From positions 558,001 to 622,000 of the forward strand of contig OZ251222.1 in the NCBI GenBank assembly GCA_965240325.2: DNA of 64,000 bases, read 5' to 3'. Origin of the DNA: Rebecca billardiae RCC1528 (taxonomy: Eukaryota; Protista; Haptophyta). Below the pieces are notes generated by a model. It was not told where the DNA came from and did no database searches. It was given only the letters and a program-made list of their open reading frames with translations. This document shows positions 17,301 through 39,591 of this stretch, piece by piece. Each line of letters begins with the position of its first letter. The first letter of the stretch is position 1. Position numbers and translations under genes: made by a program.

Positions 17301-18325
17301 GGGTCGTTCTTCCGAGCCCCCCCACGCTTTTTCCCCAGCCCGAGCCCGAACATTGTTGTATGAGGACCTATTGCGAACGCGGGGGCGTGGAGGCCTCCCC
17401 AGGATGACGAAACTTGGCCGGGACCAAGTGTTGTTGGAAATCCAAACAACACTTGGTCCCGGCCAAATTTCGTCACATACTATCTCGTCCCGAAAGATCG
17501 CAGCCCCGACGCAGGACGGAAGCTTCTGTGCCTTCCAACGTCGGCCCACGAGAGGGTCAAGAGCATGCCGTGCGTGCTTGCGGCGGTCGGCGGGGACAAG
17601 TACGACCGGCGCGTTCGCGCGCGATCTCGTATGCTCGGCGGCGTTGGTGTTGCGGCTGGCCAGTCACATGTGACGCCTGGTTGCGCTCGCGTGCTTGAGC
17701 GCAGCTTGTGCGGCGCAAACCTCCGTTGTGCAGATCCGCCGACGTGCGCCGAACGCACTCCTCACGCCGTGCACCCGGAGCGTTTGAATTCGTAGAAGAT
17801 TTCGACCCAGCCACGATGTACACGGTCGTACGTGTCTCCAGAAGACACTTACGAGCAGGGCTCGATCGTGGCATGCCCTCCGTCTCCTCATATCATCTCG
17901 CTTAGCTGTGTGCGCACACACGACCAGCTCCACGGTCCACCGTGCGCGGCTCGGCGCCTTGCGCGGTCGGTGGGACACCTGGTTGCCTACATTGCACACA
18001 CGAGCTTCTCTGTGCCGCTCAAGGGTGCGTTGGCGCTCTGACTGCCGCCCCTCGCCGACATCGTGCGCACGAGAAGGGCCTGCACGTGCACGACAGGGAC
18101 GCTAAGGTCGCGGGCTGCCCTCGCTGCTTCTCCTAGACTCCCTTGTGCCGATCCTCCCGCAATCTCAATAGCTACCGGCGCAACTCCAAAACGGAAAGGA
18201 AATGCTCGCAAGAACGCCCGCGGCCCCTCGTTTTGAGCCCGAACATTTTTGTAAGCCACCCTAGACAAATGCTTCAGGACAGATACCCGTCTGGGCGAGC
18301 TTGCGGGGGCTCGGAAGAACGACCC
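17301..18325. mobile_element. Non-autonomous PIF/Harbinger-type (Tourist-like) element, 1025 bp
   Basis: Perfect 21-bp TIRs GGGTCGTTCTTCCGAGCCCCC / GGGGGCTCGGAAGAACGACCC, with a 3-bp TSD TGA on both sides. Confidence 0.75.
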
Positions 18326-18992
18326 TGAGCCGTCGTCGCAAGATCGTGATCTGATCTCGAATCTCAAATCGTCGGTGAATCGAATGTCGGGCACAGTCAT
18401 GAATAACGAATCTCGGAAGCTATCTCGTGACTTGTGCGGAACTTCGCGCGCAGCTGGGCAAATGTGCCGCAGCGGAGCACGCTACCCCCTGCACAGCGCA
18501 GCAGGAAGAGGCGAGCGAACGACACCTCCCCAGGCGTATTAGCCATCGCCACCACTTTGCTTGCTTCCTACAGCGGCCCACGCCCGGACTTGATGCCCGA
18601 TGTAGCACACATGTCTGACATGACCCCCTCTGCCTCCATAGCTGCACGAGTGAAATACAGGCGCCTCGCTGCCAGGGCCAGTGGCCCAGACCCCTGCCCA
18701 GCTACTGGGCTCGATGACAGTCCCCTCAGCTCCCTTCCCCGCGCAGGGATCGGCTAGTGGCTGGCCCTCTGCCCACACTGGGGCACCCTAGGGGGTGCCC
18801 CTGCTGCCGACTCGGCTCAAACTCGATGATCTTGAATTGCAAGGCCGTACACTGCTTGTACCTGGGACCACCCCACAGTGTTGGGCTCGTATGCTGTTGG
18901 CAATGGCATACCCCCGCCCCCTCTGGAGGCGGGCTGTCCACAGTGGAGTGGTGTCAAGACACTAGGTGTCTCGGTCAGTGGTTTGAGGTTGG

Positions 18993-19237
18993 GAGAGAGA
19001 GGGTATTACCTACTCACCAGGACAGTTTACCCCCGGCCGCCGCGTCGTCACAAAATGGCCGGCACTCGCAGGTCATTTTCGCGCATCCGCGCACACCCTC
19101 CATCCCTCCCGCCCCTCCGAAATCACCGGTGTTTGCCGCCCGAAACGAGACTGGCAAATGCCGGTGATTTTCGCGCTGAAAACCATGCTTTCACAAGCGA
19201 AAATTTAGACGCCACTTCGATACACTGCGCGCTACGA
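18993..19237 (+). repeat. Left terminal inverted repeat of PLV (245 bp)
   Basis: GAGAGAGAGGGTATTACCTACTCACCAGG...CTGCGCGCTACGA; reverse complement of 32468-32712 with about 4 mismatches. Confidence 0.95.
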
Positions 19238-19311
19238 GGCCAGCCACCACCCAACCGCCATAGTGGCGAGCGGGTGGTCGGTGGCTAAATAATTTCTGCG
19301 GTGTGTTAAGT

Positions 19312-19629
19312 ATGAAGACCACCTTCACGACCGTCGAGGATGGTCGCATGGGCCCGGAGAATCCAGCCGAGCTCAAGGGCCTGTACGCCCACTGTAAAGC
19401 ATGTGAGAAATACGTGCCCGCACTCGAGATGAACTATCGTCGCAAGAACAAGCGTGTTTACCGGGCCAAGATCTGCATCGCATGCAACCGGGAGCTGCTC
19501 AAGAAACGTCAGGCACTCTGGCGCGAGCGTCATCCTCGGCAAAACAAGGAAGATAGCAATTCAGATATGCAGCTGAGCACGCACTCGGCGCTGAAGACGG
19601 CCGATGGAGGCGGCCTATCGTCCATGTAG
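19312..19629 (+). CDS. PLV small basic Zn-ribbon protein (CxxC...CxxC)
   Basis: HCKACEK...KICIACNRELLKKRQ; ATG at 19312 after an AT-rich leader. Confidence 0.6.
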   Translation: MKTTFTTVEDGRMGPENPAELKGLYAHCKACEKYVPALEMNYRRKNKRVYRAKICIACNRELLKKRQALWRERHPRQNKEDSNSDMQLSTHSALKTADGGGLSSM

Positions 19630-19854
19630 TATCTCCAGGTTTTTCTGCAGGCTCGGTGTCGGGCCCCACAGCAAATGACGGCTGTAGTAAATCCCAGATT
19701 TGGGGTTGTTCCAGTTTTTATTCACGCGATGCCTAGCGATCCAGGCCTTTTTGATGGCATCATCACCATGGTCTATATACGTCTTACCGCCTTTAGCACC
19801 AAAATGCACACCCTTGTACTCGTATCGCTTACCCTTGCGGGTCGAAGCTTTCAT
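19615..19854 (-). CDS. PLV Tlr6F/DUF5754-like small conserved viral protein
   Basis: STRKGKRY..VHFGAKGGKTYIDHGD..KKAWIARH...PKSGIYYSRHLLWG resembles the small family found in PLVs, virophages and NCLDVs. Confidence 0.75.
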   Translation of the reverse strand: MKASTRKGKRYEYKGVHFGAKGGKTYIDHGDDAIKKAWIARHRVNKNWNNPKSGIYYSRHLLWGPTPSLQKNLEILHGR

Positions 19855-19875
19855 TTATATGACATGATTTTTAGT

Positions 19876-21996
19876 CTATGGCGGAGGCGTGAAGAGGTCA
19901 TAGTCGCGATCGACCTCGGCCTGCGTGATCGCACCTTCGGTGTAGAAGCGCACTGCAGCACACTTGAATGGACCGCCGCTTGGGGGCGTGCTCGCGTAAA
20001 TTTCGTTGACATCGCCCACGGCAGTGGCGCTCATGGCCTCAACGCCGAGCGATACCTTGTTCAACCAGGCCTCCATGTTGCCTCCCACTGTATAAGACCA
20101 AGCAATATGATACCAGGTGTTCAGCGGCAAAACATCGACTCGGTCGTATAAATTACCAGACTGCCCTGTGATATCGAACCCAAACGCGGTGTTCCCAACG
20201 CCGTTGCGGTAGATGTAAAAATGAACGACCTTCGAGCCTGTATTGCGCCACTCGAGTTTGAATGAGCCTGAGACGTTGTCGACATAAACCCACGCTGAGA
20301 ACCCAAACATCGTCATCGTCTGCGTCGGTACTGGCGCTGTCATCACAACCGAGCTGCTGAGATCAGCATAGCCATTGGTGTGCGTTGCAGTGCCGCTGGA
20401 TACAGTGAAAGCATAGCTGCCAACATCATCGGTCAAATTCGTCGTCATCGGCCAGCTGGCAAATGGATTTAAGCCTTGCATCGGCGAGTACAAATTCATC
20501 ACCGTCGGCACATCGATGATCCCGCGCGCGATTGTCATGGCATACAGTCGCACGCCTGCGGTCATAGGCGCGGTTCTGTGCCCGATGATGCTGAGCAGCG
20601 GGGTGAAGCTGGCTGGTAGCGTGGTAGTACTCACCAGCACACCATCGATGTACACTTTGGACGTGGTGCCATCCACTGTTTGCGCAATGTGGTGCCACTC
20701 TCCATGTGCCGGTCCTGCCAAGTCCTGAAACGCTGTCGCGCCCAGCTCAGAGCGCAGCTGGCCACCGATGATCTCGAAAGTGAAGTCGGTGACGCCATCC
20801 TCGAGGAGCCACATGCGAACGGCATCGGTGTTATTCGGGCGGTAGGTCCATGCCGCAAGCGAGAAGCGCTCGCTGCCCTGCATGTCGGGCATTTCATTCA
20901 GACCGAGATGCAATGTACTAGTATTTTGCATCTCTAGGTAACCGCTCGTCATCACATAATCGCCATTTGTGGGCTGCAGCGCGGCGGCGGCACCGTCCAC
21001 CTCGAGCAAGTCTCCATCGAGCAGCCATGTGTACCGCAGGACATACCCAGGCCACGACTGCGCGTGCGCCAGGCGGCCGGCCGCATCGAGAGCGTATGGA
21101 TATATGCTCAGCTGCGCGAGCGCAGCCTGGTCGTCAAGCGTGGCGACGAGTGGGTAGTAGAGCGAAATCCGCTTGAAATCCGGGTCCGTTTGTTGGCCAA
21201 TAGTGCGAGAGTGGAGGAGCGTTTGGTCCGCATAGATCTCGATATTCGCCTCAAAAGACGTGGTTTCCTGCGAGATGACAAAGTGTGTCCAGAGACCGCT
21301 TGGGACCATCTGGCTCACGTCGTCTACAAAGCCGACACTGCTACTAGCGATGATGTTCGAGTCCAGCTCAGCGCTCGCGTACGAGAGCCCACCGCCTAGT
21401 GAGAGCTTACTCAGGCCTGGGCAGCCCTTCAGGAAAAAAGCCGCACTAAAATCCCGCCAGTCGTGCCCCGGTGTCTGGAGCGTGAGCGTGCTCGCATTGG
21501 CCGTTGAGCGAGCGGAGTCTTCAGCAAAGGCAAACGTGCCAGCCGGCACGAGGCTCTGAGCGCGGGGAGTGGTATCAACCAGGTCTGCGGTCAGCGGGAA
21601 ATGAGCCACTGTGGGGCCAGTGAGAATGGACTGGGTAATCAGATTGCCAGACTCGATCGATCCATGATATAGCGTACCCGTGTGATCAAAGCTGGTCAGT
21701 AGAGTATCACCAGAATATACGCTGAAATAGGGCTTATACTCATGATCATATTGGCGATTCACGACCTTCTCATAATTGTCTGCTGTCCAGACTACAGTGG
21801 CGCTCGATGGAGTTATGCTCGCGCTCGTCACAGTGAATACATGCCTGGGATGGGAAACCCGTATTTTCAGGTCGGCATCGGGCAGTGGCGGAACGAAATT
21901 GATAGTTATAGACGAGCTTGCTGGGTACGTGAGCACCTCGCCACTCCAGCTGATTGATGATGATGATGATGAAACTAGGCCGAAGATGCTCGCCAT
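19876..21996 (-). CDS. PLV protein with three LamG/concanavalin-A-like lectin domains (putative fibre/receptor-binding protein)
   Basis: Three repeats ending GLWTHFVI..., GEWHHIAQTVDGTTSKVYIDGVLV and NTWYHIAWSY, each preceded by FS(A/L)xxW/F and an AxWP/FxL-type start; Laminin_G_3-like pattern. Confidence 0.75.
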   Translation of the reverse strand: MASIFGLVSSSSSSISWSGEVLTYPASSSITINFVPPLPDADLKIRVSHPRHVFTVTSASITPSSATVVWTADNYEKVVNRQYDHEYKPYFSVYSGDTLLTSFDHTGTLYHGSIESGNLITQSILTGPTVAHFPLTADLVDTTPRAQSLVPAGTFAFAEDSARSTANASTLTLQTPGHDWRDFSAAFFLKGCPGLSKLSLGGGLSYASAELDSNIIASSSVGFVDDVSQMVPSGLWTHFVISQETTSFEANIEIYADQTLLHSRTIGQQTDPDFKRISLYYPLVATLDDQAALAQLSIYPYALDAAGRLAHAQSWPGYVLRYTWLLDGDLLEVDGAAAALQPTNGDYVMTSGYLEMQNTSTLHLGLNEMPDMQGSERFSLAAWTYRPNNTDAVRMWLLEDGVTDFTFEIIGGQLRSELGATAFQDLAGPAHGEWHHIAQTVDGTTSKVYIDGVLVSTTTLPASFTPLLSIIGHRTAPMTAGVRLYAMTIARGIIDVPTVMNLYSPMQGLNPFASWPMTTNLTDDVGSYAFTVSSGTATHTNGYADLSSSVVMTAPVPTQTMTMFGFSAWVYVDNVSGSFKLEWRNTGSKVVHFYIYRNGVGNTAFGFDITGQSGNLYDRVDVLPLNTWYHIAWSYTVGGNMEAWLNKVSLGVEAMSATAVGDVNEIYASTPPSGGPFKCAAVRFYTEGAITQAEVDRDYDLFTPPP

Positions 21997-22018
21997 ATAT
22001 TATAAGCCATATAATAAT

Positions 22019-22651
22019 ATGCGTATCACTGACCCGCTAAAGAAGGAGTATACGCAGTTTAAGGCTGCGCTGCAAAATGCGGGCTTCGCTGACAAGGACA
22101 AAAAGATTGCCGGCGTGTATGTGATCCACCCAACATGGGCGGGCAAGAGACCCCTGTTTAAAATGGGAATGACCAAAAATATTCGGAGTAGGCTCTTCGC
22201 GGGATACAGGCACAGCATGCCATACGCAGCGGGCAGCTTCAAGCTACTGGCATTCCTGGTGACGAGCCCCAACCTGGCCAAAGATGTGGAGGATCGGCTT
22301 CTCGCTCGCACGAATCCAGGCTACAGTTTTGTCAAGCCTCTCCGGGATAAAGAGTGGCGACAAAGCGGGGCACCATGGCCTGAGATTCGGCCGCTCCTGG
22401 CTCTGCTCATGGCGGTGGTGCGGAGGCAAACAGAGGGGAACTGGTACGTCTTCAATGACAAGGGGTCGATCACTCACAGAGGCGGCAGTCAGCCGGCTGT
22501 GGAGCAAACCTCGGTCATCCCTACTGGAGCCATCCGTCGCACGCGTAGCCAGAGAGACAGGCGAGCGCAGGTCACAAACATTGTAGACGCCACGAGCGGG
22601 CACCCAGTCCGCTCGGCTCACGGTTTCAGGATGCTCAGGCCTCGCAAATAA
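22019..22651 (+). CDS. PLV GIY-YIG (T5orf172/MUG113-like) nuclease
   Basis: AGVYVI...LFKMGMTKNIRSRL...AKDVEDRLL...KEW; probable ATG at 22019. Confidence 0.75.
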   Translation: MRITDPLKKEYTQFKAALQNAGFADKDKKIAGVYVIHPTWAGKRPLFKMGMTKNIRSRLFAGYRHSMPYAAGSFKLLAFLVTSPNLAKDVEDRLLARTNPGYSFVKPLRDKEWRQSGAPWPEIRPLLALLMAVVRRQTEGNWYVFNDKGSITHRGGSQPAVEQTSVIPTGAIRRTRSQRDRRAQVTNIVDATSGHPVRSAHGFRMLRPRK

Positions 22652-22665
22652 AACTGTGCAGTAAT

Positions 22666-23283
22666 ATGAATATCACCACCATCTCAACCCAGGAAGGCGA
22701 GCGCATGCTATTCGATTCGGGGACGACCCTCCAAAAAGACAGGCGCATGTTGCTAGAAGCATCATACATGACGCTCGAGCAGGCGCGCGAGCACGTAAAG
22801 CCGCGGTACCGGCTCGACGTCAGACTCTCGTCTGACGAAGACAAGGTGTTGGTGCACATAGCATCAGGCCGGCCGCTAGTCCTATTTCGAGGCAGTGTCA
22901 GCTTTGCCGACTGGGCAGTGTCTGATGTGCTACTCGCGCTCGGCTTCTCTGTATATGATCCGCGCCACCAGCGAGCCCGAAAGCTGGTCGAGATTGTGCG
23001 GCGAAAATATGGCGTGACGTCAGCCATGGGCCACAGCTTGGGCGGGCACATAGCCGAAAACTCTGGCGCAGCTCAGGTGCATACATCCCAAAAAGGTGCT
23101 GGGTTGAAGGATATCGGAAAGGTCTTACCAAAGACACAATTCGATGTCCGCTCTCCAGGCGATATCGTGTCGGCACTCTCGCTCACTCAGCGAGGGGGCA
23201 GTCGGAAGACGGTCGGGCGCATCAGCGCAGACGCGTTCACGCGCCCAATCCGCTTTTTACGAGAGCAGCACCGCCTAGCGTAG
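22666..23283 (+). CDS. PLV lipase (class-3-like alpha/beta hydrolase)
   Basis: VLFRGS...ADW, nucleophile elbow GHSLGG, GDIVS (Asp) and C-terminal EQH (His). Confidence 0.85.
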   Translation: MNITTISTQEGERMLFDSGTTLQKDRRMLLEASYMTLEQAREHVKPRYRLDVRLSSDEDKVLVHIASGRPLVLFRGSVSFADWAVSDVLLALGFSVYDPRHQRARKLVEIVRRKYGVTSAMGHSLGGHIAENSGAAQVHTSQKGAGLKDIGKVLPKTQFDVRSPGDIVSALSLTQRGGSRKTVGRISADAFTRPIRFLREQHRLA

Positions 23284-23568
23284 AAACCGGTCGGCTCTGC
23301 GAGCCCCCTGGTCCAGACGGTTGGAGATCTGACGCCCACGCTGTATGGCCCGCCTTCCCGCGGCCGTATAAGGTGAGGCGATATCGCCGAGGCCTTCGGT
23401 GCGATCGACTTCGTTCAAGAATTGGGTGACGTCCCCACCCACCTTGTCTACACAGGGCTTTAGGTGATGGATTGCAGAGCTGATAGGTCTGCCGAGCCTT
23501 CGGGCGGTGTTAGCCAGCCCGCCGATCTTTCCGCGCGCATCTCTAACGAGTCTACCTAGAAAACTCAT
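23275..23568 (-). CDS. PLV small Arg-rich protein with amphipathic N-terminus, directly downstream of MCP (putative core/membrane-active virion protein)
   Basis: MSFLGRLVRDARGKIGGLANTARRLG...; co-oriented with MCP and preceded by an AT-rich leader. Confidence 0.65.
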   Translation of the reverse strand: MSFLGRLVRDARGKIGGLANTARRLGRPISSAIHHLKPCVDKVGGDVTQFLNEVDRTEGLGDIASPYTAAGRRAIQRGRQISNRLDQGARRADRFLR

Positions 23569-23585
23569 GTATATATAGAGCGAAA

Positions 23586-24899
23586 TTAAATGGCGAAATT
23601 AAGCTGGTTCTGTGAGACCTCCATCATCACATCGTGGAGCGCCCAGGCATGCCACTTGAAAGATGCCCCGCTGTTCGTGTCCGCCTCAAAGATGGCGTAC
23701 TCGGTATCGAGTCGGCGGCCGTCGAAGAGGATGTCGGACTGCGAGAAGGCGCTCGTGTTAAAGGCGATGCAGAAAGCCGCATCGTCAAAGGCCGTGCCGC
23801 TCACGCGAGAGGCATAATCGGCAATGCCGAGCGCGTTGAAGGCGCGAACGAGCTCAGCGCGCGTCTCTGCGCCGCCGTGGGTGGCAGAGACTGGCTGATC
23901 CGGCACGAGGGTAGAGCCGATGCGCAACTGCCACTTGGTGAGCGCCGCTCGCGTGCGAGTCGTGATGTCGCCACCAAAGGCGTTCTCACTGGTATTCGGC
24001 ACCGCAGCCAGGATGATCATGTTGACCGAGGCCAGGCGGAACGGCAACTGCCAGGCCGTCGACGTGTTTGCAGCCACCGAGTGGGAGGCATGGAGGTAGG
24101 ACATCGATGGGATGTAGATCCGATCGAGCGAGCGAACCATCTTGGTGTAGGCACTATCACTAAGCATGACCATGCCGAGCTGCATCTTGACCGTCTCAAG
24201 CGTGGGGGAGGTAGTGCCTGGGTCGGCATCATACACGCCAAAGTCGAGCATGTTTGCCACATGGATGTCAACACGAAGGCCTTGGTGCAGCTCAGAGAGC
24301 GGCACCGCCTTACCACACAGAGCGCCAAACACGTACGCGAGTGGGAGGGTAACCGTCTTCCGGGCATTGTTGGCAATTGTCTCACCGGTTGTCGGGTAAA
24401 GCGCGCTCTCAACATCGGCGGCTGCATATGCGGCAGGCATCTCGTAGTCGGCACAGCCCAGCATGCTGCCGGTGGAGAAGCCCGAAGATGCGCCCGACTG
24501 GAAGTCGAGCAAGACATTGTGCAGCAGGCCTGCCTTGCCCGTGCTTGCGATCATCTGGCTGCCGTGGTAGGCGTCAATGCGCTCGATGCACGAGTATGCA
24601 GACCTTGAGAGCGTGAGAGGCTGGCCAGAGGTGTTGTGGATTGTAAACTGCAGGACTGTCTGCGACGGGTCCATCATCGCGCCGGGCGTGCCAGTCGGGA
24701 TATCGAATTGCATCACCTGGCCACTTGTGAAGCTAGACGACGGGCCTGCATATATCGTCGACCTCTTGTAGGCAGCGCCAACGGCGACGGGCTTGGGGTT
24801 TGAGAAGTCATAGTAGCTCGGAGCCGTCTCCTCCTGCTCGAGCACCATCGCGTCATCACCGCGAATATCGTTCGTCACACGCTTGCCGGCGTAAGCCAT
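23586..24899 (-). CDS. PLV major capsid protein (double jelly-roll)
   Basis: 437 aa, beta-rich. SSFTSGQVMQFDIP...MMDPSQTVLQFTI and KWQLRIGSTLVPDQPV fit the PLV MCP pattern; adjacent to mCP and ATPase. Confidence 0.85.
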   Translation of the reverse strand: MAYAGKRVTNDIRGDDAMVLEQEETAPSYYDFSNPKPVAVGAAYKRSTIYAGPSSSFTSGQVMQFDIPTGTPGAMMDPSQTVLQFTIHNTSGQPLTLSRSAYSCIERIDAYHGSQMIASTGKAGLLHNVLLDFQSGASSGFSTGSMLGCADYEMPAAYAAADVESALYPTTGETIANNARKTVTLPLAYVFGALCGKAVPLSELHQGLRVDIHVANMLDFGVYDADPGTTSPTLETVKMQLGMVMLSDSAYTKMVRSLDRIYIPSMSYLHASHSVAANTSTAWQLPFRLASVNMIILAAVPNTSENAFGGDITTRTRAALTKWQLRIGSTLVPDQPVSATHGGAETRAELVRAFNALGIADYASRVSGTAFDDAAFCIAFNTSAFSQSDILFDGRRLDTEYAIFEADTNSGASFKWHAWALHDVMMEVSQNQLNFAI

Positions 24900-24924
24900 A
24901 AGTACTATGGCCAGGAAATATTTC

Positions 24925-25659
24925 TTAAGAAATTTGGAATTTCAGGTTGACAGACCACTCGGCTCCATTCAGCTCCACCGGCTGCATGGTCTCGAGATCG
25001 ATCAGCTGGAGCTCGATATTTTGTATACTCCGGCGGTTGCACTGCAAAATGTCATTGTTCGCATCAGTGTACAGCACAGTCTGGCCGAACGGCTTGTCGA
25101 TGTGCACCACACATAAAATGTTGCTCGATGAGCCAGAGTTGGTCGAGTCTCTGCTCTTGACATCCAGCCCTTCGCAGGTGAGCGCAAAGCCTCGGCTGAG
25201 CAGGTCCACCACGCCGGGTGCCTCTATACTGCCGCTGGCAGGTATCACCAAGTCTGTGCGACAGAGGCCGAGCACGCGCGAAGCGCTGCTCGTGCCTTTG
25301 ATGGTGGTGTCGAAACCATGTGTCGTCGAGAATGTGAGCTTGCCAGTGGCCGAGTCGAAAGCAGCAGTCACGTTGATGCTAGACAATGCCGAGTTGATCT
25401 CTGTGACAAGCGTGCTAGCGGTATAATTCTTCGGGGTGAGCGTGAGCGTTGTGTCGCCCCAGTCGGAGGCGGCACCCACGCTATTATTCGAGCTGTCTAC
25501 GGCATAGCGCGTATTAGGCACACACAGGCTATCGACAGATACAAATATGACCTCATCGCTTGCCGCCATGATTGGGTGGCTCAGTGTGAAATTCACGCAG
25601 CTCGTCTTGGCTCGGCCCAGTGGGAACACATCGCCCTGACTTGTGTGCAGGTGCAGCAT
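24925..25659 (-). CDS. PLV minor capsid (penton) protein
   Basis: YAVDSSNN...LTLTPKNYTASTLVTEINSAL...FDSATGKLTF...IELQLID...VELNGAEWSVNLKF is a typical PLV mCP pattern. Confidence 0.8.
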   Translation of the reverse strand: MLHLHTSQGDVFPLGRAKTSCVNFTLSHPIMAASDEVIFVSVDSLCVPNTRYAVDSSNNSVGAASDWGDTTLTLTPKNYTASTLVTEINSALSSINVTAAFDSATGKLTFSTTHGFDTTIKGTSSASRVLGLCRTDLVIPASGSIEAPGVVDLLSRGFALTCEGLDVKSRDSTNSGSSSNILCVVHIDKPFGQTVLYTDANNDILQCNRRSIQNIELQLIDLETMQPVELNGAEWSVNLKFQIS

Positions 25660-25772
25660 GAATTAGTGCCGATATTATTTCATCATCGCTCGTGCCGAGC
25701 TTCTTGGAGATGTACCATGCCAATGCATCCTCTCGGCTGAAATCCAAAATATTCTCTGCTTGCATATAGAAG

Positions 25773-26102
25773 ATGGAGAATAAAAAGACACGCAGCGAGG
25801 CGCAGCAGCTGGCGACGGAGCGCATGCGCCTGAAACGCCAGGTTGTGACATATGAGACACATGCGGCCACATACACCAAGCTGGCAGAGGATGCGAAAGC
25901 CAAGCTCGAAGAAATCGGCGGCGAGGTCGGGCCAAAAGCACCCACACCCAGGCGCCCACCAAGCAAGACGCCGCCGAGCATTGTCAGGCAGCCGGTCGAA
26001 TCGATCGAGCTGGCAGGCGAGGAAGAGGTGACCCCAGAGGCGGTGACCCCGGAGGTGACCCCTGTCAAGACATCCCAAAAAAGAATCATGCGGTTTATAT
26101 GA
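25773..26102 (+). CDS. PLV hypothetical protein (coiled coil plus Pro/Thr-rich tail)
   Basis: 109-aa ORF whose stop overlaps the ATPase start (ATGA). Confidence 0.6.
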   Translation: MENKKTRSEAQQLATERMRLKRQVVTYETHAATYTKLAEDAKAKLEEIGGEVGPKAPTPRRPPSKTPPSIVRQPVESIELAGEEEVTPEAVTPEVTPVKTSQKRIMRFI

Positions 26103-26795
26103 TCAACGAGATCGCGCATCACATAGAGCTCCCGCTGCCTAGAATCAGTGCGGACAAGCCTCTAAAGCCAGGCCTGCCAGAGCCTCTCCCAAACACGAGC
26201 TTTCATTGGGGCGTCTTTGGCCCACCCCGTAGCGGCAAATCCAGCCAGGTAGTGGGCTTGATCACTGGGCCCTATAAACGAGTCTTTGCCAACGTAATCT
26301 TCGTGGCTCCTCGCACCTCGGTGGACAGCTTCCAAAATTCCCCGCTAGCCACGCTCCAATATGTGTACCACGAGCTGACGGCAGAGACACTTCAGAATGT
26401 GCTCAGCATTGCCGAGTCGAATATGCCTTTGCCGACGCTCCTTATTATAGATGATTTTGCTGCGTCACTAAAAGACCCAAATTTACAACGCCTGTATTCG
26501 CGTATCGTTCAGAACAGGCGACACTACAAACTCAGTATCATTGTTATATCACAGGGTTACATATCGGTGCCACTGACTATACGAAAATTATTCTCGCATG
26601 TGACCGTGTTCAAGCCCAACAATACCAAGGAGCTAGAGGCTCTGCGCTCTGAATTGATCATGATGCCTCGCTCAGACTTTGCTACAGTGTATCAAGTACA
26701 TTTTTGGCGATGGCGATCCGCACACTTTTTTATTTCTTAATGCAGACCATGGTACGCTCCACAGAGAGTGGAATAAATTATCATTACTATTATAG
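26099..26795 (+). CDS. PLV A32-like DNA packaging ATPase, with an apparent +1 frameshift near 26690
   Basis: Walker A GPPRSGKS, Walker B LLIIDD, RRHYKLSIIVISQ. The C-terminus continues in another frame as IKYIFGDGDPHTFLFLNADHGTLHREWNKLSLLL, with its stop at 26793-95. Confidence 0.9.
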
Positions 26796-27716
26796 ATGCA
26801 GGCCATACATCGCGAGCGATTCCTGCCGACCAAGACCACGCATTTTCGGCTCGAGGGCAAACCGTATGGAGGCTCCTTTCACAGCCGAGGGAAAGAATAC
26901 TGGAGCGGATCCGTGCCTACGCCGTCTTCGAGACGATTGACGTATTCGGCCGAGCCGATTGTGATGAAGCCGCTGATCAAGCCCACGAGACCGCCGCCCA
27001 CAAACCAGACGGCTGCAGTGGGCAGGCGAGTGCCTTCCATCGATTCCTTGCTCCCCTTTAGCGATGGTGTCAACGAATTTCGTGCTCGGCAGATTCGCCT
27101 GCCTACACGCGATGCGTCTGGTCAGGCCATGAGCAGACTCATAGTAAACAAGCAGCCTCTGCCTGTCTCCACAAGCGCCGTGCCAGAGCGGCGATCGATT
27201 GGTGTTGAGACGGACAGAGTCGTTCGGAACCTGCGGCCAGAGCAGCACTCTACAGGTACTCAGGCGAGCACCAAGAGACGCTCCATGGGTACTCAGGAGA
27301 TGCCTCCTCCGGCTGAACGCCCGGCGATTGGCACGCAGGCTGGCGGTCCAAAGAGAAGGTCAACTGGCACTCAGGGGGTGCCAGAGCGCCCGGCGATTGG
27401 CACGCAGGCTGGCGGCCCAAAGAGGCGTTCCATGGGCACGCAGGAGCAGCCATCCCAGCAGACGGCTGGCACCCAGGCCTCAAAACCGCTCTTCGGAAAT
27501 GAAGCGAGAGACCACCTTGACGACAACATCGATGCCATCATACTCATGATGCAGGCCAACCCGAAAGAATCGCGCACAGCTCTGAGCAAGATGCTGGCCA
27601 GAGATTTTAATGTATCTGAAAACGCGGCGAAGGCATTCCTCAAGGTCATCCCGTACGATCCCACACCTCGGTTCTCGTCGCCGTCGTCATCGTTCAGCCC
27701 GTCAAGCAAGCTGTGA
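26796..27716 (+). CDS. PLV hypothetical, largely disordered basic protein with tandem xGTQx repeats
   Basis: Seven GTQ units (HSTGTQA, RRSMGTQE, PAIGTQA, RRSTGTQG, PAIGTQA, RRSMGTQE, QTAGTQA) plus RRSIGVET. Confidence 0.7.
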   Translation: MQAIHRERFLPTKTTHFRLEGKPYGGSFHSRGKEYWSGSVPTPSSRRLTYSAEPIVMKPLIKPTRPPPTNQTAAVGRRVPSIDSLLPFSDGVNEFRARQIRLPTRDASGQAMSRLIVNKQPLPVSTSAVPERRSIGVETDRVVRNLRPEQHSTGTQASTKRRSMGTQEMPPPAERPAIGTQAGGPKRRSTGTQGVPERPAIGTQAGGPKRRSMGTQEQPSQQTAGTQASKPLFGNEARDHLDDNIDAIILMMQANPKESRTALSKMLARDFNVSENAAKAFLKVIPYDPTPRFSSPSSSFSPSSKL

Positions 27717-30700
27717 CGAACTCGTTCATTATTCGGTTGGCCCACTTGAGGCTCACGTCGTAGCCAGACTCGTCGACCATGATTTGCGCTGCCTTCCTTG
27801 CTGTGAGCGTGTCCCAATCATGTGTCCGAATAATTCGCTCAAAGTGTCTCCTTGGATCGAGCTTGTAGTGGCCCAGCGATAGGATCTCCAGCCCGTCCGC
27901 AGCCACGACACCCTTGTTGTACGAGTTTCGGAGCGCCACCTTCTCACGGCGTTCCATCCTCACCACATTCGAGCGCGGCGCAATCTGGTAGTATTCTACG
28001 TGTGTCTCCTTCTCGCGGAGGACGATATCGCGATAGTGACCATGTTGCAGTGCTTTCGTCACCACTTTGTATGGCACGCCCTTGTTCTTGCGCAGTTCTT
28101 TCTTTGTCGATCTGACCGAGTAACATTTCGGCGCGTTGCACACCACCTCGCAAATGCGGTCGTTGGCGAACTCGTCCTTGAAGTAGCCGACCACTTTCTG
28201 GTTCGAGGCATCGTGCATCGGGTTGCGCTTGTGGTAGCCATGCATATCAAGCCAGCGCGGCGCGAGCTCTTTCATCTTGTGCTTGTAATTCTTGTCGTTC
28301 ACCGAGAAGATGAAGGAATCGGTATCGGTCATGCACAGCTGGATGTTTGGAAGCGCCGGCTTGAGGCCATCGTACCAAAAGGTCTGCATGAGCAGCTTCG
28401 AGCTCTCGAGGATGAGCGCGCCCAATTGAACAGGAGTAGTCTTGAGGTAGCGCTTCTTGTCACCAGAGACGAGAAAGAGCGAGCCGCCGATATGCCTCGA
28501 GTACCGGCTGCGCGGGTCGAGGAAGCGCTTCTCCATCACACTCCCAGAGACGATGCCGGCATCCTGGTGGTGCAGCGTGCGCTCCATGGTTTTTCCAAAG
28601 CACGAGTTCGGGCCTAGTTTGAAGAAATTCTTCTCAAAGTCGTTTCTCGCCTGGGCGCGCAGCGCAGCCATCTGGTCGACATAGCCGCGCATCCACGGTG
28701 CTAGATGCATCTCTAGCACGCGATGGACCTTTGTCACGACAAAGCCGAGCTCGACTGCCTTCTGCAGATTCAGCACACTGCACACATAGTTGACACGTGG
28801 GTCGAGGTGCGCGATGAGCTTGCCGTCACGGTGTTCGGGCAGCGGGACAAAATCGTTGAGGTGCTGGTGCGTGTGCTCCGGGAAGTAGCCATCGATCTCC
28901 ACATACGCTCCGATGTCTCCTTGGAAATCGAGGTCGCCGGGGTCACTCGGTAGCCGCCCATACCGGGGGTCGTGCAGGTCAAAGTCCTCGGGCTCAACAT
29001 CCCAGGGCGCGCCTACTGGCATCTTGAGCTTCATCGCCCAGCCGTACAAGTTGTTCGCGTCAAAGTAGCCGATGTGCACGCCTCCTCCTGCCGTCTGCAG
29101 CTTGTGGCGCACATCTGTGTAGCCGCCGCGAATGCACTTGGAAGCAAAGTCCACGTCTCTCGAGTCTTGCCAGAGCTCGATCTTTTGCCCCGTGGTCTTG
29201 AGCATCGTCTTGAAGAAGGATTGCGGCGCCGAGAGAAACCAGCTCGGGTCCAGGCCAAAGTTGGTGTGAAAGAGGTGCTGGAAGTTGGTGAAGACGTCTG
29301 CCTGCCCGTGAACGTCGATAGCGAGGTACCAGTCGAGGAGGTCTCTCATCGTCTCCAGCCCGACCGCCGACTTGAGTTGCACGAGCTTGACGATCGCCTC
29401 ATCCTCGCCCGCCTCAAAGTGTTGGTCCTGGCCTGCGATACCGAAGCTCGATTTAAGCTTGGACAAGAAGAGGTCGGGGTATTTTTCGATGAGCGTGTCG
29501 ATGGGCGTATCCAGCTCGAGGTGCCACGGAATCTCGTAGGGGAAAATGCCCTTGCGCCGCGCGGCCTCGAATACGATTTCTGGGTCGAGTCCTCGGGCCC
29601 GCGCCCAATCGCTGGCAAACGAGCGCAAGTTCCGCATGTCCGCGGGGTCCAGGTTGTCTAGGAGCGTCTCCAGCGATTCTTTCATAAAGGCCATCGTGTC
29701 CTTGAAACAAAAGCCGCCGATAGTCAGCTGCTTGAGTCGCTGCGTGTTCTGGAGAATGATGTCGGTTTTGAGCGCTTTGGTGAGGCGCGTGCTCGCGAGC
29801 TCGCGCTCGAGGCTGGTGATTTGCGCAGTGTCATAGTTGTCTCCTCTTATTGCGCACGAGACGAGAAGCGCCTCCTGCGCCTCGATCCTTTTCTTGAGGA
29901 TCTCCGTTTTGCGGTTCTGCTTTATCCTGGCCATCTCGTTCATCAGCCCTTGCACCCGCTCGGAGCCGAGGGCCTGGATCAGGAAATTGGCGTCAAAGCC
30001 GGTGAGGTTGTGAAAGAATACTGGTACGCTCGCCATGAGATTCGTCGTGGATGCATGCAGGTTGCACTTTGTGCAGGCGGCGCCGCGATATGCGCCAGTG
30101 TAGTGGTCATGATCGAAATTTTTGGTCTCGCCGAATTCGCCGTCGCAGAGGTAGCAGCAGGTGGCACTATCGAAAGCCTGCTGGGTCTCGTGTGTGAAGG
30201 AGCGCTTCTTGAGCGCAGAGTGCCTGCTTGCAGTATCCAGGTAGCTCGGGTATGTCTCCAGCAGGTAGACCACCAGATCAATATGGCACTCAGGCCCGGT
30301 GAAGGTCACGTACTTGATGGCTCCGTCGCTCCAGGTCTCAATGAGGCCGACGGCATATGGCCTCATCTCACCGTCGATGGTCACGGTCTCGAAATCGGCG
30401 TGGATCACCAGCGGCTTGACGATCTGCTCGATGCCTCCCGTGTACTCGATAGAGGTCTGGTAATCTTTGCCGGCCGCAGCCTCGCGAGGCGTCATGTAGC
30501 TGGCTAATTTCTGCTCCTCAGTCTGAGCATCGTAGTTAACTGTCCACGAGTCATGGCACGTCTCCTGATGCTCATCTCGCTTGGCGCGAGCGTTGAACGG
30601 GAACTTTTTGAGACACAGCTCGCAGTAGATATAGGTGGTATTTGCGCAAATGGCATCGGCGGAGCGGCAGAAGACCCAGTGCTCCTTGTAGAGCCCGAGG

Positions 30701-31971
30701 GTCACCCGAGGCAGGTTGTGGAAATCCTGCGGCGTCGGCAGTCGCATCACCTGCGCCTGCCCACCGTCCTCGGGGAGGCGATAGGCTGTGATGGCCAGGT
30801 TGTTGGCGACCTCCCATGCGCGGATCTCACCGATGTCCACAGGGTAGACAGCACCCTCGGGCTCGGTCACGAGGAACTTCCGGTGGACGCTCGGCCGCTC
30901 GGGGTGGGCAACGCCGCTCTCCACAGCCTTTGCCGCCTGCAGCGCGGCCATGAAGCACTTGAGGTCTTGGTTCTTGGGGTTGACGATGCCCATCTTGGCG
31001 TTCGCCCACCGCCCTTCGAGCTTCACGTAGCTGCTCCCGGATGTCGCTCCGCGAGGCGTCACCATGCCGCTGGTTATCCACATTCGGCTGAGGGCGATTG
31101 GCTTGTCTGCGTAGATTGACTGCCGCTGCTCGAAGGCGTCTGTGATCATCTCGTTGACGAGGTCGATGAGCGGCTGCGGCTCCTGCTGCCAAACTGCTTT
31201 GCCAGCGATGGAGCGACTTGACTTCGAGATGGTGGGGTGCCCTCGTTCGATCATGCGGCGGTAGGCGTCCTCGGGCAGGCTCGGCATCTCGACCGCAAAG
31301 ACACCCTTGGTGCTCTTCACATGCAGCGTCTCGATGATGACCCTCACCTTGAGCCGACTCGATGCTCCGCGCATCAGCTCCTTCTCGATCGTCTCAGCGA
31401 CAAAGTCGTGGATTGCGCTTGTCAGATGCGACGGCATCTGGTAGAGCGCTTGCTCTCGCATGAGCAGAGGCGCCGTCGCCTCCACCTGCATCGAGATTGG
31501 CATGGTGAAGGTCGTCTCCTTGGTGATCTCCGGCCCATGCACAGCCACCCTGGTCATGCCATCATTCAGCATCTTGGCGGTGAAGCCGATCTGCTTGCGC
31601 AGCTTCCTCATGCCCTCCGATGTGCGAGGTAGTCGCCTCTTGCGCCCTTGGAGCATGAACTGCCCGCCGTCTTGGAGCTCGATGCCCATCGCCTTCAGCT
31701 CTGTCTCCATAGGCTGGTGCTTCTCAAGCCTCTCGAGCGTGCGGCGTAGCTGGTCCCAGCTCTTGCGCGTTCTGGGCATGCGCTTTCGCTTGCCCTGCAG
31801 CACGAAGGTCTTGCCATCGACGTTTGGCGTCAGGTTGAACTCGGCAAAGAGCCTCTCGAGACGGTCTCGGTCGAGCTCGTGGCGCGCGACGGCATGCCGC
31901 CTCATGGGCAGCTCGGGGTCGAGGAGTACCTGCTCGAGTTGGTTGCGGCGGTCAAGGTCGAGGATGACCAT
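27694..31971 (-). CDS. polB: Protein-primed family B DNA polymerase (Polinton type) with OTU-like N-terminal region and endonuclease-VII-like Zn insertion
   Basis: Exo motifs VIHADFET, FFHNLTGFD, YLAIDV. Pol motifs IRGG, YFDANNLYGWAM, KLGPNSCFGK, TDTDS, KNKGV. Insertion CYLC...DHDHYTGAYRGAACTKCN. Confidence 0.95.
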   Translation of the reverse strand: MVILDLDRRNQLEQVLLDPELPMRRHAVARHELDRDRLERLFAEFNLTPNVDGKTFVLQGKRKRMPRTRKSWDQLRRTLERLEKHQPMETELKAMGIELQDGGQFMLQGRKRRLPRTSEGMRKLRKQIGFTAKMLNDGMTRVAVHGPEITKETTFTMPISMQVEATAPLLMREQALYQMPSHLTSAIHDFVAETIEKELMRGASSRLKVRVIIETLHVKSTKGVFAVEMPSLPEDAYRRMIERGHPTISKSSRSIAGKAVWQQEPQPLIDLVNEMITDAFEQRQSIYADKPIALSRMWITSGMVTPRGATSGSSYVKLEGRWANAKMGIVNPKNQDLKCFMAALQAAKAVESGVAHPERPSVHRKFLVTEPEGAVYPVDIGEIRAWEVANNLAITAYRLPEDGGQAQVMRLPTPQDFHNLPRVTLGLYKEHWVFCRSADAICANTTYIYCELCLKKFPFNARAKRDEHQETCHDSWTVNYDAQTEEQKLASYMTPREAAAGKDYQTSIEYTGGIEQIVKPLVIHADFETVTIDGEMRPYAVGLIETWSDGAIKYVTFTGPECHIDLVVYLLETYPSYLDTASRHSALKKRSFTHETQQAFDSATCCYLCDGEFGETKNFDHDHYTGAYRGAACTKCNLHASTTNLMASVPVFFHNLTGFDANFLIQALGSERVQGLMNEMARIKQNRKTEILKKRIEAQEALLVSCAIRGDNYDTAQITSLERELASTRLTKALKTDIILQNTQRLKQLTIGGFCFKDTMAFMKESLETLLDNLDPADMRNLRSFASDWARARGLDPEIVFEAARRKGIFPYEIPWHLELDTPIDTLIEKYPDLFLSKLKSSFGIAGQDQHFEAGEDEAIVKLVQLKSAVGLETMRDLLDWYLAIDVHGQADVFTNFQHLFHTNFGLDPSWFLSAPQSFFKTMLKTTGQKIELWQDSRDVDFASKCIRGGYTDVRHKLQTAGGGVHIGYFDANNLYGWAMKLKMPVGAPWDVEPEDFDLHDPRYGRLPSDPGDLDFQGDIGAYVEIDGYFPEHTHQHLNDFVPLPEHRDGKLIAHLDPRVNYVCSVLNLQKAVELGFVVTKVHRVLEMHLAPWMRGYVDQMAALRAQARNDFEKNFFKLGPNSCFGKTMERTLHHQDAGIVSGSVMEKRFLDPRSRYSRHIGGSLFLVSGDKKRYLKTTPVQLGALILESSKLLMQTFWYDGLKPALPNIQLCMTDTDSFIFSVNDKNYKHKMKELAPRWLDMHGYHKRNPMHDASNQKVVGYFKDEFANDRICEVVCNAPKCYSVRSTKKELRKNKGVPYKVVTKALQHGHYRDIVLREKETHVEYYQIAPRSNVVRMERREKVALRNSYNKGVVAADGLEILSLGHYKLDPRRHFERIIRTHDWDTLTARKAAQIMVDESGYDVSLKWANRIMNEFVTACLTG

Positions 31972-32172
31972 TCTTACTCTGGCGCAGAAAATTTTCGTCG
32001 AAAACTAACGCACTTTTGGTCCGCCGCTGGCTCGGCCCCCAAGTCCTAAGTTTTTTCCGCGGATGGCGGGTCGGCGGCTGAGGGTCGGCGGCGGCCGCCC
32101 GGGATGCCGACATCGTCGCGCGAGCTCGGCCCAAGTCTTAAGTGCGGATCGAAATATGTTTTGGGGATGGTC

Positions 32173-32372
32173 GGCCTCTCTAAAGTTGAGACCCCCGAAG
32201 CTTCGCCCGTATGGTCGCCTTTTTTTTACTGGTGGGGGCGCTGGTCTGTCCTGGTGGTAAAACCCTGGCGGAGTGCTCGAAGTGGCCTCTAAAGTTGAGA
32301 CCCGAAGCTTCACCAGTAAAATCATGGTCGCCTCGCGAGTTTTTACTGGCGGGGCGCTGGTCTGTCCTGGTG
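32173..32372. repeat. Imperfect ~85-bp direct repeat pair upstream of pPolB
   Basis: GGCCTCT(C)TAAAGTTGAGACCC..GAAGCTTC..ATGGTCGCCT..TTTTACTGG.GGGGCGCTGGTCTGTCCTGGTG at 32173-32256 and 32284-32372. Confidence 0.8.
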
Positions 32373-32467
32373 AAAAGCGAGATCCGGAAAGCTTCGGCCT
32401 TGGATCACTGGTAGTTCTTGGCCGGCTCGCAAGCTTCGGCGGCCGCCCTCGGTTTGTCTTGGCGGGA

Positions 32468-32712
32468 TCGTAGCGCGCAGTGTATCGAAGTGGCGTCTAA
32501 ATTTTCGCTTGTGAAAGCATGGTTTTCAGCGCGAAAATCACCGGCATTTGCCAGTCTCGTTTCGGGCGGCAAACACCGGTGATTTCGGAGGGGCGGGCGG
32601 GATGGAGGGTGTGCGCGGATGCGCGAAAATGGCCTGCGAGTGCCGGCCATTTTGTGACGGCGCGGCGGCCGGGGGTAAACTGTCCTGGTGAGTAGGTAAT
32701 ACCTTCTCTCTC
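32468..32712 (-). repeat. Right terminal inverted repeat of PLV (245 bp)
   Basis: Reverse complement of 18993-19237. Confidence 0.95.
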
Positions 32713-32840
32713 GTGAGGGTGGTGGTTGGTTGGGGGCTGGCCAGGGTAGGGCTGGAGGCTTCGGCCGCCAGCCTGATCACCCGGAGCCCGTTATAAAGGG
32801 GAATTTTAAAATAAAAAAATGGGACTTCACGCTGTACTGG

Positions 32841-37804: not shown

Positions 37805-37935
<131 letters not shown>

Positions 37936-39096: not shown

Positions 39097-39225
<129 letters not shown>

Positions 39226-39591
39226 CTATAGTCGTGTCGCGTCGTCGTAGTCATCAGCAGAATGCACGCAGTCTGAGTCTGCATACTGTGATGCCATTAT
39301 GACTGCTATACGATGGCCGTCCGAAGGCCCGAGGCCGCTAGTGCCGCTTGGTCGCCGATGTCGGTCGCCGGAAGCAAGCAGTACGTAGTCATGCTCGGGC
39401 GGGTGGCATCACCATCGCGCGTTGTCGTGCTGTCCGGGGCAGCGCTTGGCACGGACCCATGCTGCGAAGTCGAAGTGTGAGCACTGGGTGCCAGCGAGTG
39501 CCTCGACTTTGGGTGCCAGCGCCGTCGCACCAAGAGGTGAGCACGGACCGCAACTTGGTCGAGTTGGGCCGAGCGCCCCCGGGCGGCGGGC

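Follow-up and report, generated by a model that had tools for sequence, protein, structure and literature searches.

Polinton-like viruses (PLVs) were defined by Yutin et al. in 2015 as viruses without a maturation protease, and the same paper noted that some integrated PLVs carry no integration enzyme at all and may borrow resident integrases in trans (PMC4642659). Integrase-less integrated PLVs and their mobilization in trans have been in print since then, and how such viruses enter protist chromosomes has been a matter of guesswork for as long. Most endogenous viral elements (EVEs) of protists encode integrases (Bellas 2023, PMC10120064), and in PgVV-like PLVs the tyrosine recombinase, widespread though not universal there, is the commonest integration gene (bioRxiv 2022.07.28.501842). 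In the PLVs of cryptophytes, a recombinase is associated with the absence of a target-site duplication (TSD) and RVE with its presence; by cluster, C1 holds 232 tyrosine recombinases (YREC) and 2 RVE of 298, and C4 94 RVE and 6 YREC of 183 (PMC12220804). The same catalogue contains many elements bounded by terminal inverted repeats (TIRs) for which neither integration gene is annotated, and its Table S6 gives, for 9 haptophyte elements, 4 recombinases and 0 rve genes (PMC12220804). Here we describe a PLV integrated in a 64,000-nt stretch (hereafter the window) of the haptophyte Rebecca billardiae RCC1528 (assembly GCA_965240325.2, contig OZ251222.1, positions 558,001 to 622,000). The element, at 18993–32712 of the window, is complete, codes for no integrase that can be detected by sequence, and entered its target without altering it. 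We consider it quite possible, if somewhat short of probable, that a co-resident virus of PgVV type supplied, in trans, the tyrosine recombinase that integrated it. What is new here is the clean junction, the profile-based exclusion of integrases and the chimeric make-up; in the literature covered, to which subscription papers mostly do not belong, we found no integrase-less PLV that had been set against its empty site.

A complete provirus with no detectable integrase

The element is 13,720 bp long and has a GC content of 57%, versus 67–75% in its flanks. Its TIRs lie at 18993–19237 (plus strand, with a (GA)n terminus) and 32468–32712 (minus strand); an initial annotation, made from the letters of the window, had given them as 245 bp with about four mismatches, and the two arms indeed differ at exactly 4 positions (TIR positions 9, 53, 81 and 115). 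The outermost bases read GAGAGAG...CTCTCTC. Twelve open reading frames (ORFs) span 90% of the length, in keeping with the tight packing described initially, and non-coding DNA amounts to 319 nt at the left end and 741 nt at the right. Once the TIR is excluded, the latter leaves 496 nt upstream of the polymerase gene pPolB (31972–32467, minus strand; previously put at ~0.5 kb), which contains two ~90-nt direct repeats that are 80% identical. The 11-mer CACCAGGACAG is found at 19015 in the left TIR, placing it 22 nt from each element end, once in each of the ~90-nt repeats (32256 and 32372), and nowhere else in the window (0.0004 occurrences expected per strand); these sites may be binding sites for a recombinase or an origin factor. 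Metagenome contigs gave 0 matches to a 33-nt pattern taken from the TIR.

In gene content the element is a PLV: it encodes a major capsid protein (MCP) of the double-jelly-roll type, a minor capsid protein (mCP) and an A32-like packaging ATPase, lacks a maturation protease, and is bounded by TIRs at a length on the low edge of the ~14–40 kb expected. The element is thus a complete Polinton-like provirus of PgVV-like capsid type, a class assigned by comparison with MCPs of IMG/VR PLVs and of Pavlovales, not with the PgVV MCP itself. Because its TIRs differ at only 4 of 245 positions and 11 of 12 ORFs are unbroken, the copy is young, and the intact TIRs and the full set of capsid, packaging and replication genes bear out the initial view of a young, complete provirus without an integrase. 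The free form would be a linear genome with protein-primed replication.

Searches of the 12 ORFs and 101 further six-frame segments of at least 70 aa against Pfam, and of ORFs or pieces of them against PHROGs (13) and NCBIfam (10), returned no integrase family. Because the integrases of PLVs are divergent, we also built clade-specific profiles from relatives. The RVE profile, made of 11 sequences from polymerase relatives, recovered 11 of 11 left-out members at E = 4e-43 or better; over 307 six-frame segments of the element its best E was 2.1, and no Polinton-type RVE integrase was found. The tyrosine-recombinase profile, made of 39 sequences from Tlr6F-bearing loci (two of which match Pfam Phage_integrase), recovered 39 of 39 when held out by similarity group; its best E in six frames was 5.1, and no OLV11-like recombinase was found. 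Adenain likewise had no match in Pfam, PHROGs, NCBIfam or the clade-specific profiles, and the element gave no Peptidase_C5 or C48 match with a library that picked up a capsid maturation protease weakly in one relative (L006). The reported absence of RVE, tyrosine-recombinase and adenain motifs therefore stands. The missing protease loses its standing as an oddity, being normal for PLVs (PMC4642659), and pPolB holds a vOTU Cys/His pair of its own.

An integrase gene could have been present once. Had the element used a recombinase of its own whose gene was later lost by clean deletion, its capsid relatives, most of which have a recombinase (see below), would be as expected, and the 496 nt of non-coding DNA adjoining the right TIR could mark the place. 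However, six-frame searches found no recombinase remnant, the copy is young and its genes are tightly packed, and we regard such a loss as very unlikely.

The insertion left its target unchanged

Junctions were read in contigs of run X1, which represents one sample (in the other two of the three listed runs, X2 and X3, coverage is confined to a microsatellite). The element interrupts a multi-copy host repeat, the left part of which (18457–18992) has an X1 depth of ~17–46, versus ~1–5 on flanking host DNA. Its right remainder (32713–32751) stands directly after 18992 in X1 record 6 (26 nt seen), and an X1 loose end at 32752 suggests that the repeat ends at 32751. In particular, an X1 contig (161 nt, depth 25.6) joins the left flank to the 26 bases that follow the element on its right, so that exactly 13,720 bp are missing, with a 1-base ambiguity. 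Relative to this paralogous repeat copy, and within that one base, the insertion neither duplicated nor deleted target sequence, giving a duplication of 0–1 bp in place of the 5–6-bp TSD of Polintons. Consistent with the initial annotation, no exact TSD of at least 4 nt was found within −3 to +5 nt of the element ends. A near-TSD, the 9-mer TGAGG(T/G)TGG (one mismatch), was rejected: both copies stand in the uninterrupted repeat and so belong to the target. The host repeat as a whole (~575 bp; 18457–18992 plus 32713–32751) has a 22-nt palindrome near 18781 and matched no Pfam family and no Rfam family above threshold. The insertion point, G/GTGAG, resembles a splice donor, probably by chance.

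A further X1 contig (record 7; 194 nt, depth 5.4) contains the TIR from its first base next to another flank of 46 nt, and is probably a sister insertion with an intact end. At the four diagnostic TIR positions this end is apparently left-type at two and right-type at two (three listed, one inferred), a mix that fits two changes per TIR arm since insertion. By eye, an 8-mer and an inverted 7-mer of the sister flank recur within the TIR's first 35 nt, a possible resemblance on which we place no weight.

Since the flanks rejoin exactly into a repeat that is uninterrupted in X1, the data support a real insertion over the chimeric assembly that the initial annotation had named as a danger to its interpretation. 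If a free viral contig had been joined into host sequence, one would understand why neither junction is bridged by a listed X1 contig and why, as the loose end at 32752 shows, X1 differs in sequence upstream of the host gene on the right. (The latter suggests that X1 carries another sequence at this locus.) The repeat into which the flanks rejoin is, however, present elsewhere, and two differences from the X1 sister end are private to each TIR arm, as expected after chromosomal residence, making an assembly chimera most improbable.

The capsid and polymerase modules point to different relatives

The MCP (23586–24899, minus strand; 437 aa) has 328 homologs, and its predicted double-jelly-roll model (pLDDT 91.8) matches the MCP of PBCV-1 at TM 0.62–0.66, other double-jelly-roll capsids matching too. 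The nearest known MCP is 37% identical. Phylogenies of the MCP and of pPolB, a check that the initial annotation had named, place the MCP with those endogenous to Diacronema lutheri and Pavlovales CCMP2436 (FastTree support 0.97–1.0 in two trees) and give pPolB a long branch, none of the polymerase-profile loci being a close relative. These capsid relatives and the GC-rich flanks suggest that the host is a microbial eukaryote, probably a haptophyte close to Pavlovales. In Pavlovales genomes 43 of 49 MCP rows fall in the clade of the element, a count obtained with a query biased to that clade. A word-based MCP search returned only the MCP itself, alignments of MCPs yielded no motif fit for searching, and scans of viral and metagenome sequences with the MCP, a pPolB segment, ORF4 and three MCP relatives returned no loci. 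Among the 20 IMG/VR loci of at least 12 kb that carry the capsid family of the element, 13 encode a tyrosine recombinase, 1 an RVE integrase and 6 neither. (Note that these 20 were drawn from 80 loci retrieved with Tlr6F, the best 80 of 134, most of them partial, and that the capsid count is limited to loci of at least 12 kb.)

The polymerase pPolB (27694–31971, minus strand; 1425 aa) comprises, in order, N-terminal repeats, a terminal-protein region, a vOTU domain with the pair C339/H431, a C2H2-like finger, an exonuclease that contains an EndoVII insert (residues 603–639), and the polymerase. It can be aligned to a eukaryotic and viral polymerase family from about residue 150 on, and is 23–31% identical to proteins of eukaryote assemblies and viral contigs. 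Residues ~150–310 probably constitute the terminal-protein region, a placement that follows the domain order of pPolB in PMC11071308. Motifs and alignment thus indicate the Polinton-type combination of pPolB with terminal protein and vOTU, the terminal-protein fold being predicted. A single-sequence fold of residues 1–590 reached a pLDDT of only 31.5, and the N-terminus had only sub-0.9 matches in the Atlas. Inspection by eye revealed two alike basic segments at residues ~45–125 (31522–31971), ..QGKRKRMPRT.. and ..QGRKRRLPRT.., which are possibly nuclear-localization or DNA-binding repeats.

Loci found with the polymerase profile bear RVE in 12 of 18 cases. Because the capsid comes from recombinase users and the polymerase from RVE users, and neither enzyme was kept, the element is clearly chimeric, with a capsid module of PgVV type and a polymerase of Polinton type. 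In L015 (4475–15302), a virophage-type (Sputnik-like) MCP shares one contig with a pPolB of 1842 aa that belongs to the EndoVII-insert family.

The company that the polymerase keeps raises the question of RVE. Polinton ends follow an AG...CT rule, and the terminal repeats of the element are Polinton-like in this respect; a resident Polinton-type RVE integrase might have recognized the (AG)n ends and worked on them in trans. Some TSDs of RVE-bearing endogenous mavirus-like elements (EMALEs) are, moreover, only 1 bp long (PMC8547959). The duplication of at most one base seen here nevertheless falls short of the 3–6 bp typical of RVE (PMC12220804, PMC8547959), and we hold out little hope for this explanation.

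The polymerase also bears on the suggestion, made in the initial annotation, that the virus cut its target itself. Here the cut would be made by the GIY-YIG-like ORF4 or by the EndoVII domain within pPolB, and pPolB or a host ligase would join the ends. The EndoVII motif (D-H-D-H..C..C-N) is intact (Pfam E = 8.5e-6), and ORF4 (21986–22651, plus strand; 221 aa, with an ATG also upstream at 21815) has a GIY-YIG-like motif and no close homolog. The match of ORF4 to T5orf172 (E = 0.038) is under the cut-off, and GIY-YIG profiles built from related viruses, PHROGs and NCBIfam gave none, leaving it as a weak candidate only. However, the EndoVII insert is conserved across the pPolB family, the RVE-bearing members (12 of 18 loci) included; GIY-YIG genes are common in relatives that have an integrase as well; and L019, a relative without an integrase (see below), has no GIY-YIG match. 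Because both nucleases co-occur with integrases in relatives, self-cutting is weakened, the EndoVII version of it in particular finding no support, and we think it unlikely.

Free relatives without a detected integration enzyme

Three relatives resemble the element in having no detectable integration enzyme. L019 (1–15128; 15,128 bp) is bounded by inverted terminal repeats (ITRs; 123 bp, 100% identical) and carries a pPolB of the element's family, a distant MCP (hhalign 98.5%), a penton protein, an ATPase, a fibre protein and a phospholipase; RVE, tyrosine recombinase and protease were not detected in it. L064 has pPolB, is 96% complete and has, as far as seen, neither RVE nor tyrosine recombinase, one of the checks on it having run without a positive control. 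L065 (14,028 of 14,118 nt) is of the helicase type (Tlr1-like helicase fusion), also with neither enzyme as far as seen, and has a homolog in L059; in the capsid set of at least 12 kb, true pPolB occurs in L064 and L094 only. These free genomes lend partial support to the description of the element as an integrase-less linear virus.

Such relatives, like the lack of a detectable integrase in the element, would be expected if a break in a chromosome had been repaired by host end-joining that captured the blunt linear genome, whose ends were shielded by the terminal protein until its removal. The virus would then be an autonomous linear replicon whose integration is accidental only. Repair usually leaves scars, and because scars are predicted this account is disfavoured: the terminal base is kept in all three junctions seen, and the target lost nothing. 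The linear plasmid pAL2-1, which has TIRs and a terminal protein and no integrase, does integrate entire and non-homologously, but its integrations gave de novo flanking repeats and some truncations (PMC1864894). We consider host end-joining possible, though rather unlikely.

A helper recombinase as the favoured route

Integration in trans by the recombinase of a co-resident virus accounts, in our view, for more of these observations. A borrowed enzyme seems likely because both ends are intact and the element has no detectable insertion enzyme of its own. The initial annotation had offered host repair and mobilization in trans side by side; because the junction is base-exact and the capsid relatives have recombinases, a tyrosine recombinase acting in trans is favoured over repair. 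The probable sister junction keeps the same terminal base in its other flank, which we count for integration in trans. An ancestor with the capsid module of recombinase-bearing PLVs would have swapped its replication and integration end for a Polinton-type pPolB that came without its usual RVE gene. A helper recombinase would then act on the joined element ends, perhaps via the repeated copies of CACCAGGACAG, and would connect these ends to the target with no staggered cut. The many MCPs of the element's clade in Pavlovales make helpers plausible, if the host is related.

Several points weigh against a helper recombinase. Neither a recombinase nor an RVE match turned up in the 64-kb window and no helper was seen, and the Pavlovales proviruses are known here by their MCPs alone. 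Because the MCP is merely 28–37% identical to its nearest relatives, recognition of these TIRs by a helper is an assumption. A recombinase requires a circular donor, whereas the protein-primed genome is linear and its ends must first join. The empty site is represented by a repeat that is paralogous and collapsed, with 7 differences over 140 nt, and not by an orthologous allele; its joint has 26 nt on the short side, below 30 letters and in the range where repeats can yield joints; and the junctions of the window itself are spanned by no listed X1 contig. Finally, the free integrase-less relatives L019, L064 and L065 fit accidental capture equally well.

There is also some chance, which we rate as low, that this PLV lineage integrates precisely and repeatedly without RVE or tyrosine recombinase, by means of its terminal protein, EndoVII or ORF4 and blunt ligation. 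Were this so, such a route, using a virus's own parts and blunt ligation, would be the third in the Preplasmiviricota and would account for the many integrase-less protist proviruses. If a helper exists, the element would be a fully equipped virus that is non-autonomous for integration only; in the absence of any helper, precise integration without an integrase would represent a new route. Because the copy is complete, young and small and its empty site can be defined, sister junctions in one genome can decide between a helper enzyme and host repair.

Remaining genes and flanking DNA

ORF1 (19312–19629, plus strand; 105 aa) contains a CxxC..CxxC zinc ribbon comparable to the N-terminus of phage endonucleases (phrog_2340, E = 5e-4); its length leaves no room for a nuclease or integrase domain. 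ORF2 (19615–19854, minus strand) matches DUF5754 (Pfam, E = 1e-8), equated with Tlr6F in Table S6 of PMC12220804 and a core gene of PgVV-like PLVs. ORF3 (19876–21996, minus strand; 706 aa) has LamG domains and is likely a fibre or attachment protein. ORF5 (22666–23283, plus strand) is an alpha/beta-hydrolase (lipase) with a GHSLGG motif that falls into one cluster with 12 proteins from PLVs (E = 4e-28 with the profile), members of the cluster matching Lipase_3/Abhydrolase. Next to the MCP gene, ORF6 (23275–23568, minus strand) encodes a basic, amphipathic protein of 97 aa, likely a virion protein, with a weak match (E = 0.006) to the MCP-adjacent ORF of L007. The minor capsid (penton) protein (24925–25659, minus strand) matches DUF5901 (E = 8e-6) and its cluster profile (E = 1e-34), and ORF9 (25773–26102, plus strand; 109 aa) consists of a coiled coil followed by a low-complexity tail.

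The A32-like packaging ATPase (26099–26795, plus strand) has a frame break near 26694, such that its first frame ends at 26740. Because an X1 contig (depth 9) is one base different in length there, the break reflects either a mistake in the assembly or a lesion in the present copy. ORF11 (26796–27716, plus strand; 306 aa) is largely of low complexity, has no family or Atlas match, and contains eight [ST]xG[TV][QE]-type repeats, which we take to resemble multivalent dynein light chain LC8 motifs and which could aid transport of the incoming genome. The penton protein, the A32 ATPase, Tlr6F/DUF5754 and the lipase each cluster with IMG/VR PLV proteins, and none of ORFs 1, 4, 6, 9 and 11 matches any of the 30 largest clusters of relatives.

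Left of the target repeat, a 71-nt near-perfect hairpin (17405–17475; DNA minimum free energy −37.2 kcal/mol, z −11.3; Rfam miRNA matches sub-threshold only) opens a stretch of lower GC (17350–18456) that is possibly the end of another mobile element. To the right, two (AT)n arrays of ~130 nt each (37806–37935 and 39097–39230) flank a GC-rich stretch of ~1.15 kb.

Comparison with known systems

The PgVV group (Gezel-14T/PgVV and integrated haptophyte PLVs) shares with the element an MCP, mCP, A32 ATPase, Tlr6F, lipase and TIRs, and the absence of a maturation protease, and PLVs of D. lutheri appear in the legend of a PgVV-like tree (bioRxiv 2022.07.28.501842). Unlike members of that group, the element has a full pPolB in place of TVpol/SF3 helicase, no tyrosine recombinase and a GC content of 57%; at 13.7 kb it is also smaller than PgVV (~20 kb; bioRxiv 2022.07.28.501842). 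With Polintons/Mavericks it has in common the (AG)n ends and a pPolB with a predicted terminal-protein region, vOTU and EndoVII insert, but it lacks their RVE integrase, protease and 5–6-bp TSD, and its capsid is of PLV type. Because the RVE integrase and the TSD are both wanting, we class the element as a PLV and not as a Polinton.

Fungal mitochondrial linear plasmids (pAL2-1/kalilo) resemble the element in their TIRs, protein-primed polymerase, lack of an integrase and integration as whole copies (PMC1864894). In contrast, they are without a capsid, are mitochondrial and create flanking repeats (PMC1864894), whereas the target of the element is unchanged. Closest in outline are the integrase-less PLVs already in print (PMC4642659, PMC12220804), which are likewise integrated, bounded by TIRs and without an annotated integration gene. 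Unlike those elements, for which the relevant passages of the two papers show neither, the element described here has been set against an empty site, and integrases have been excluded with clade-specific profiles.

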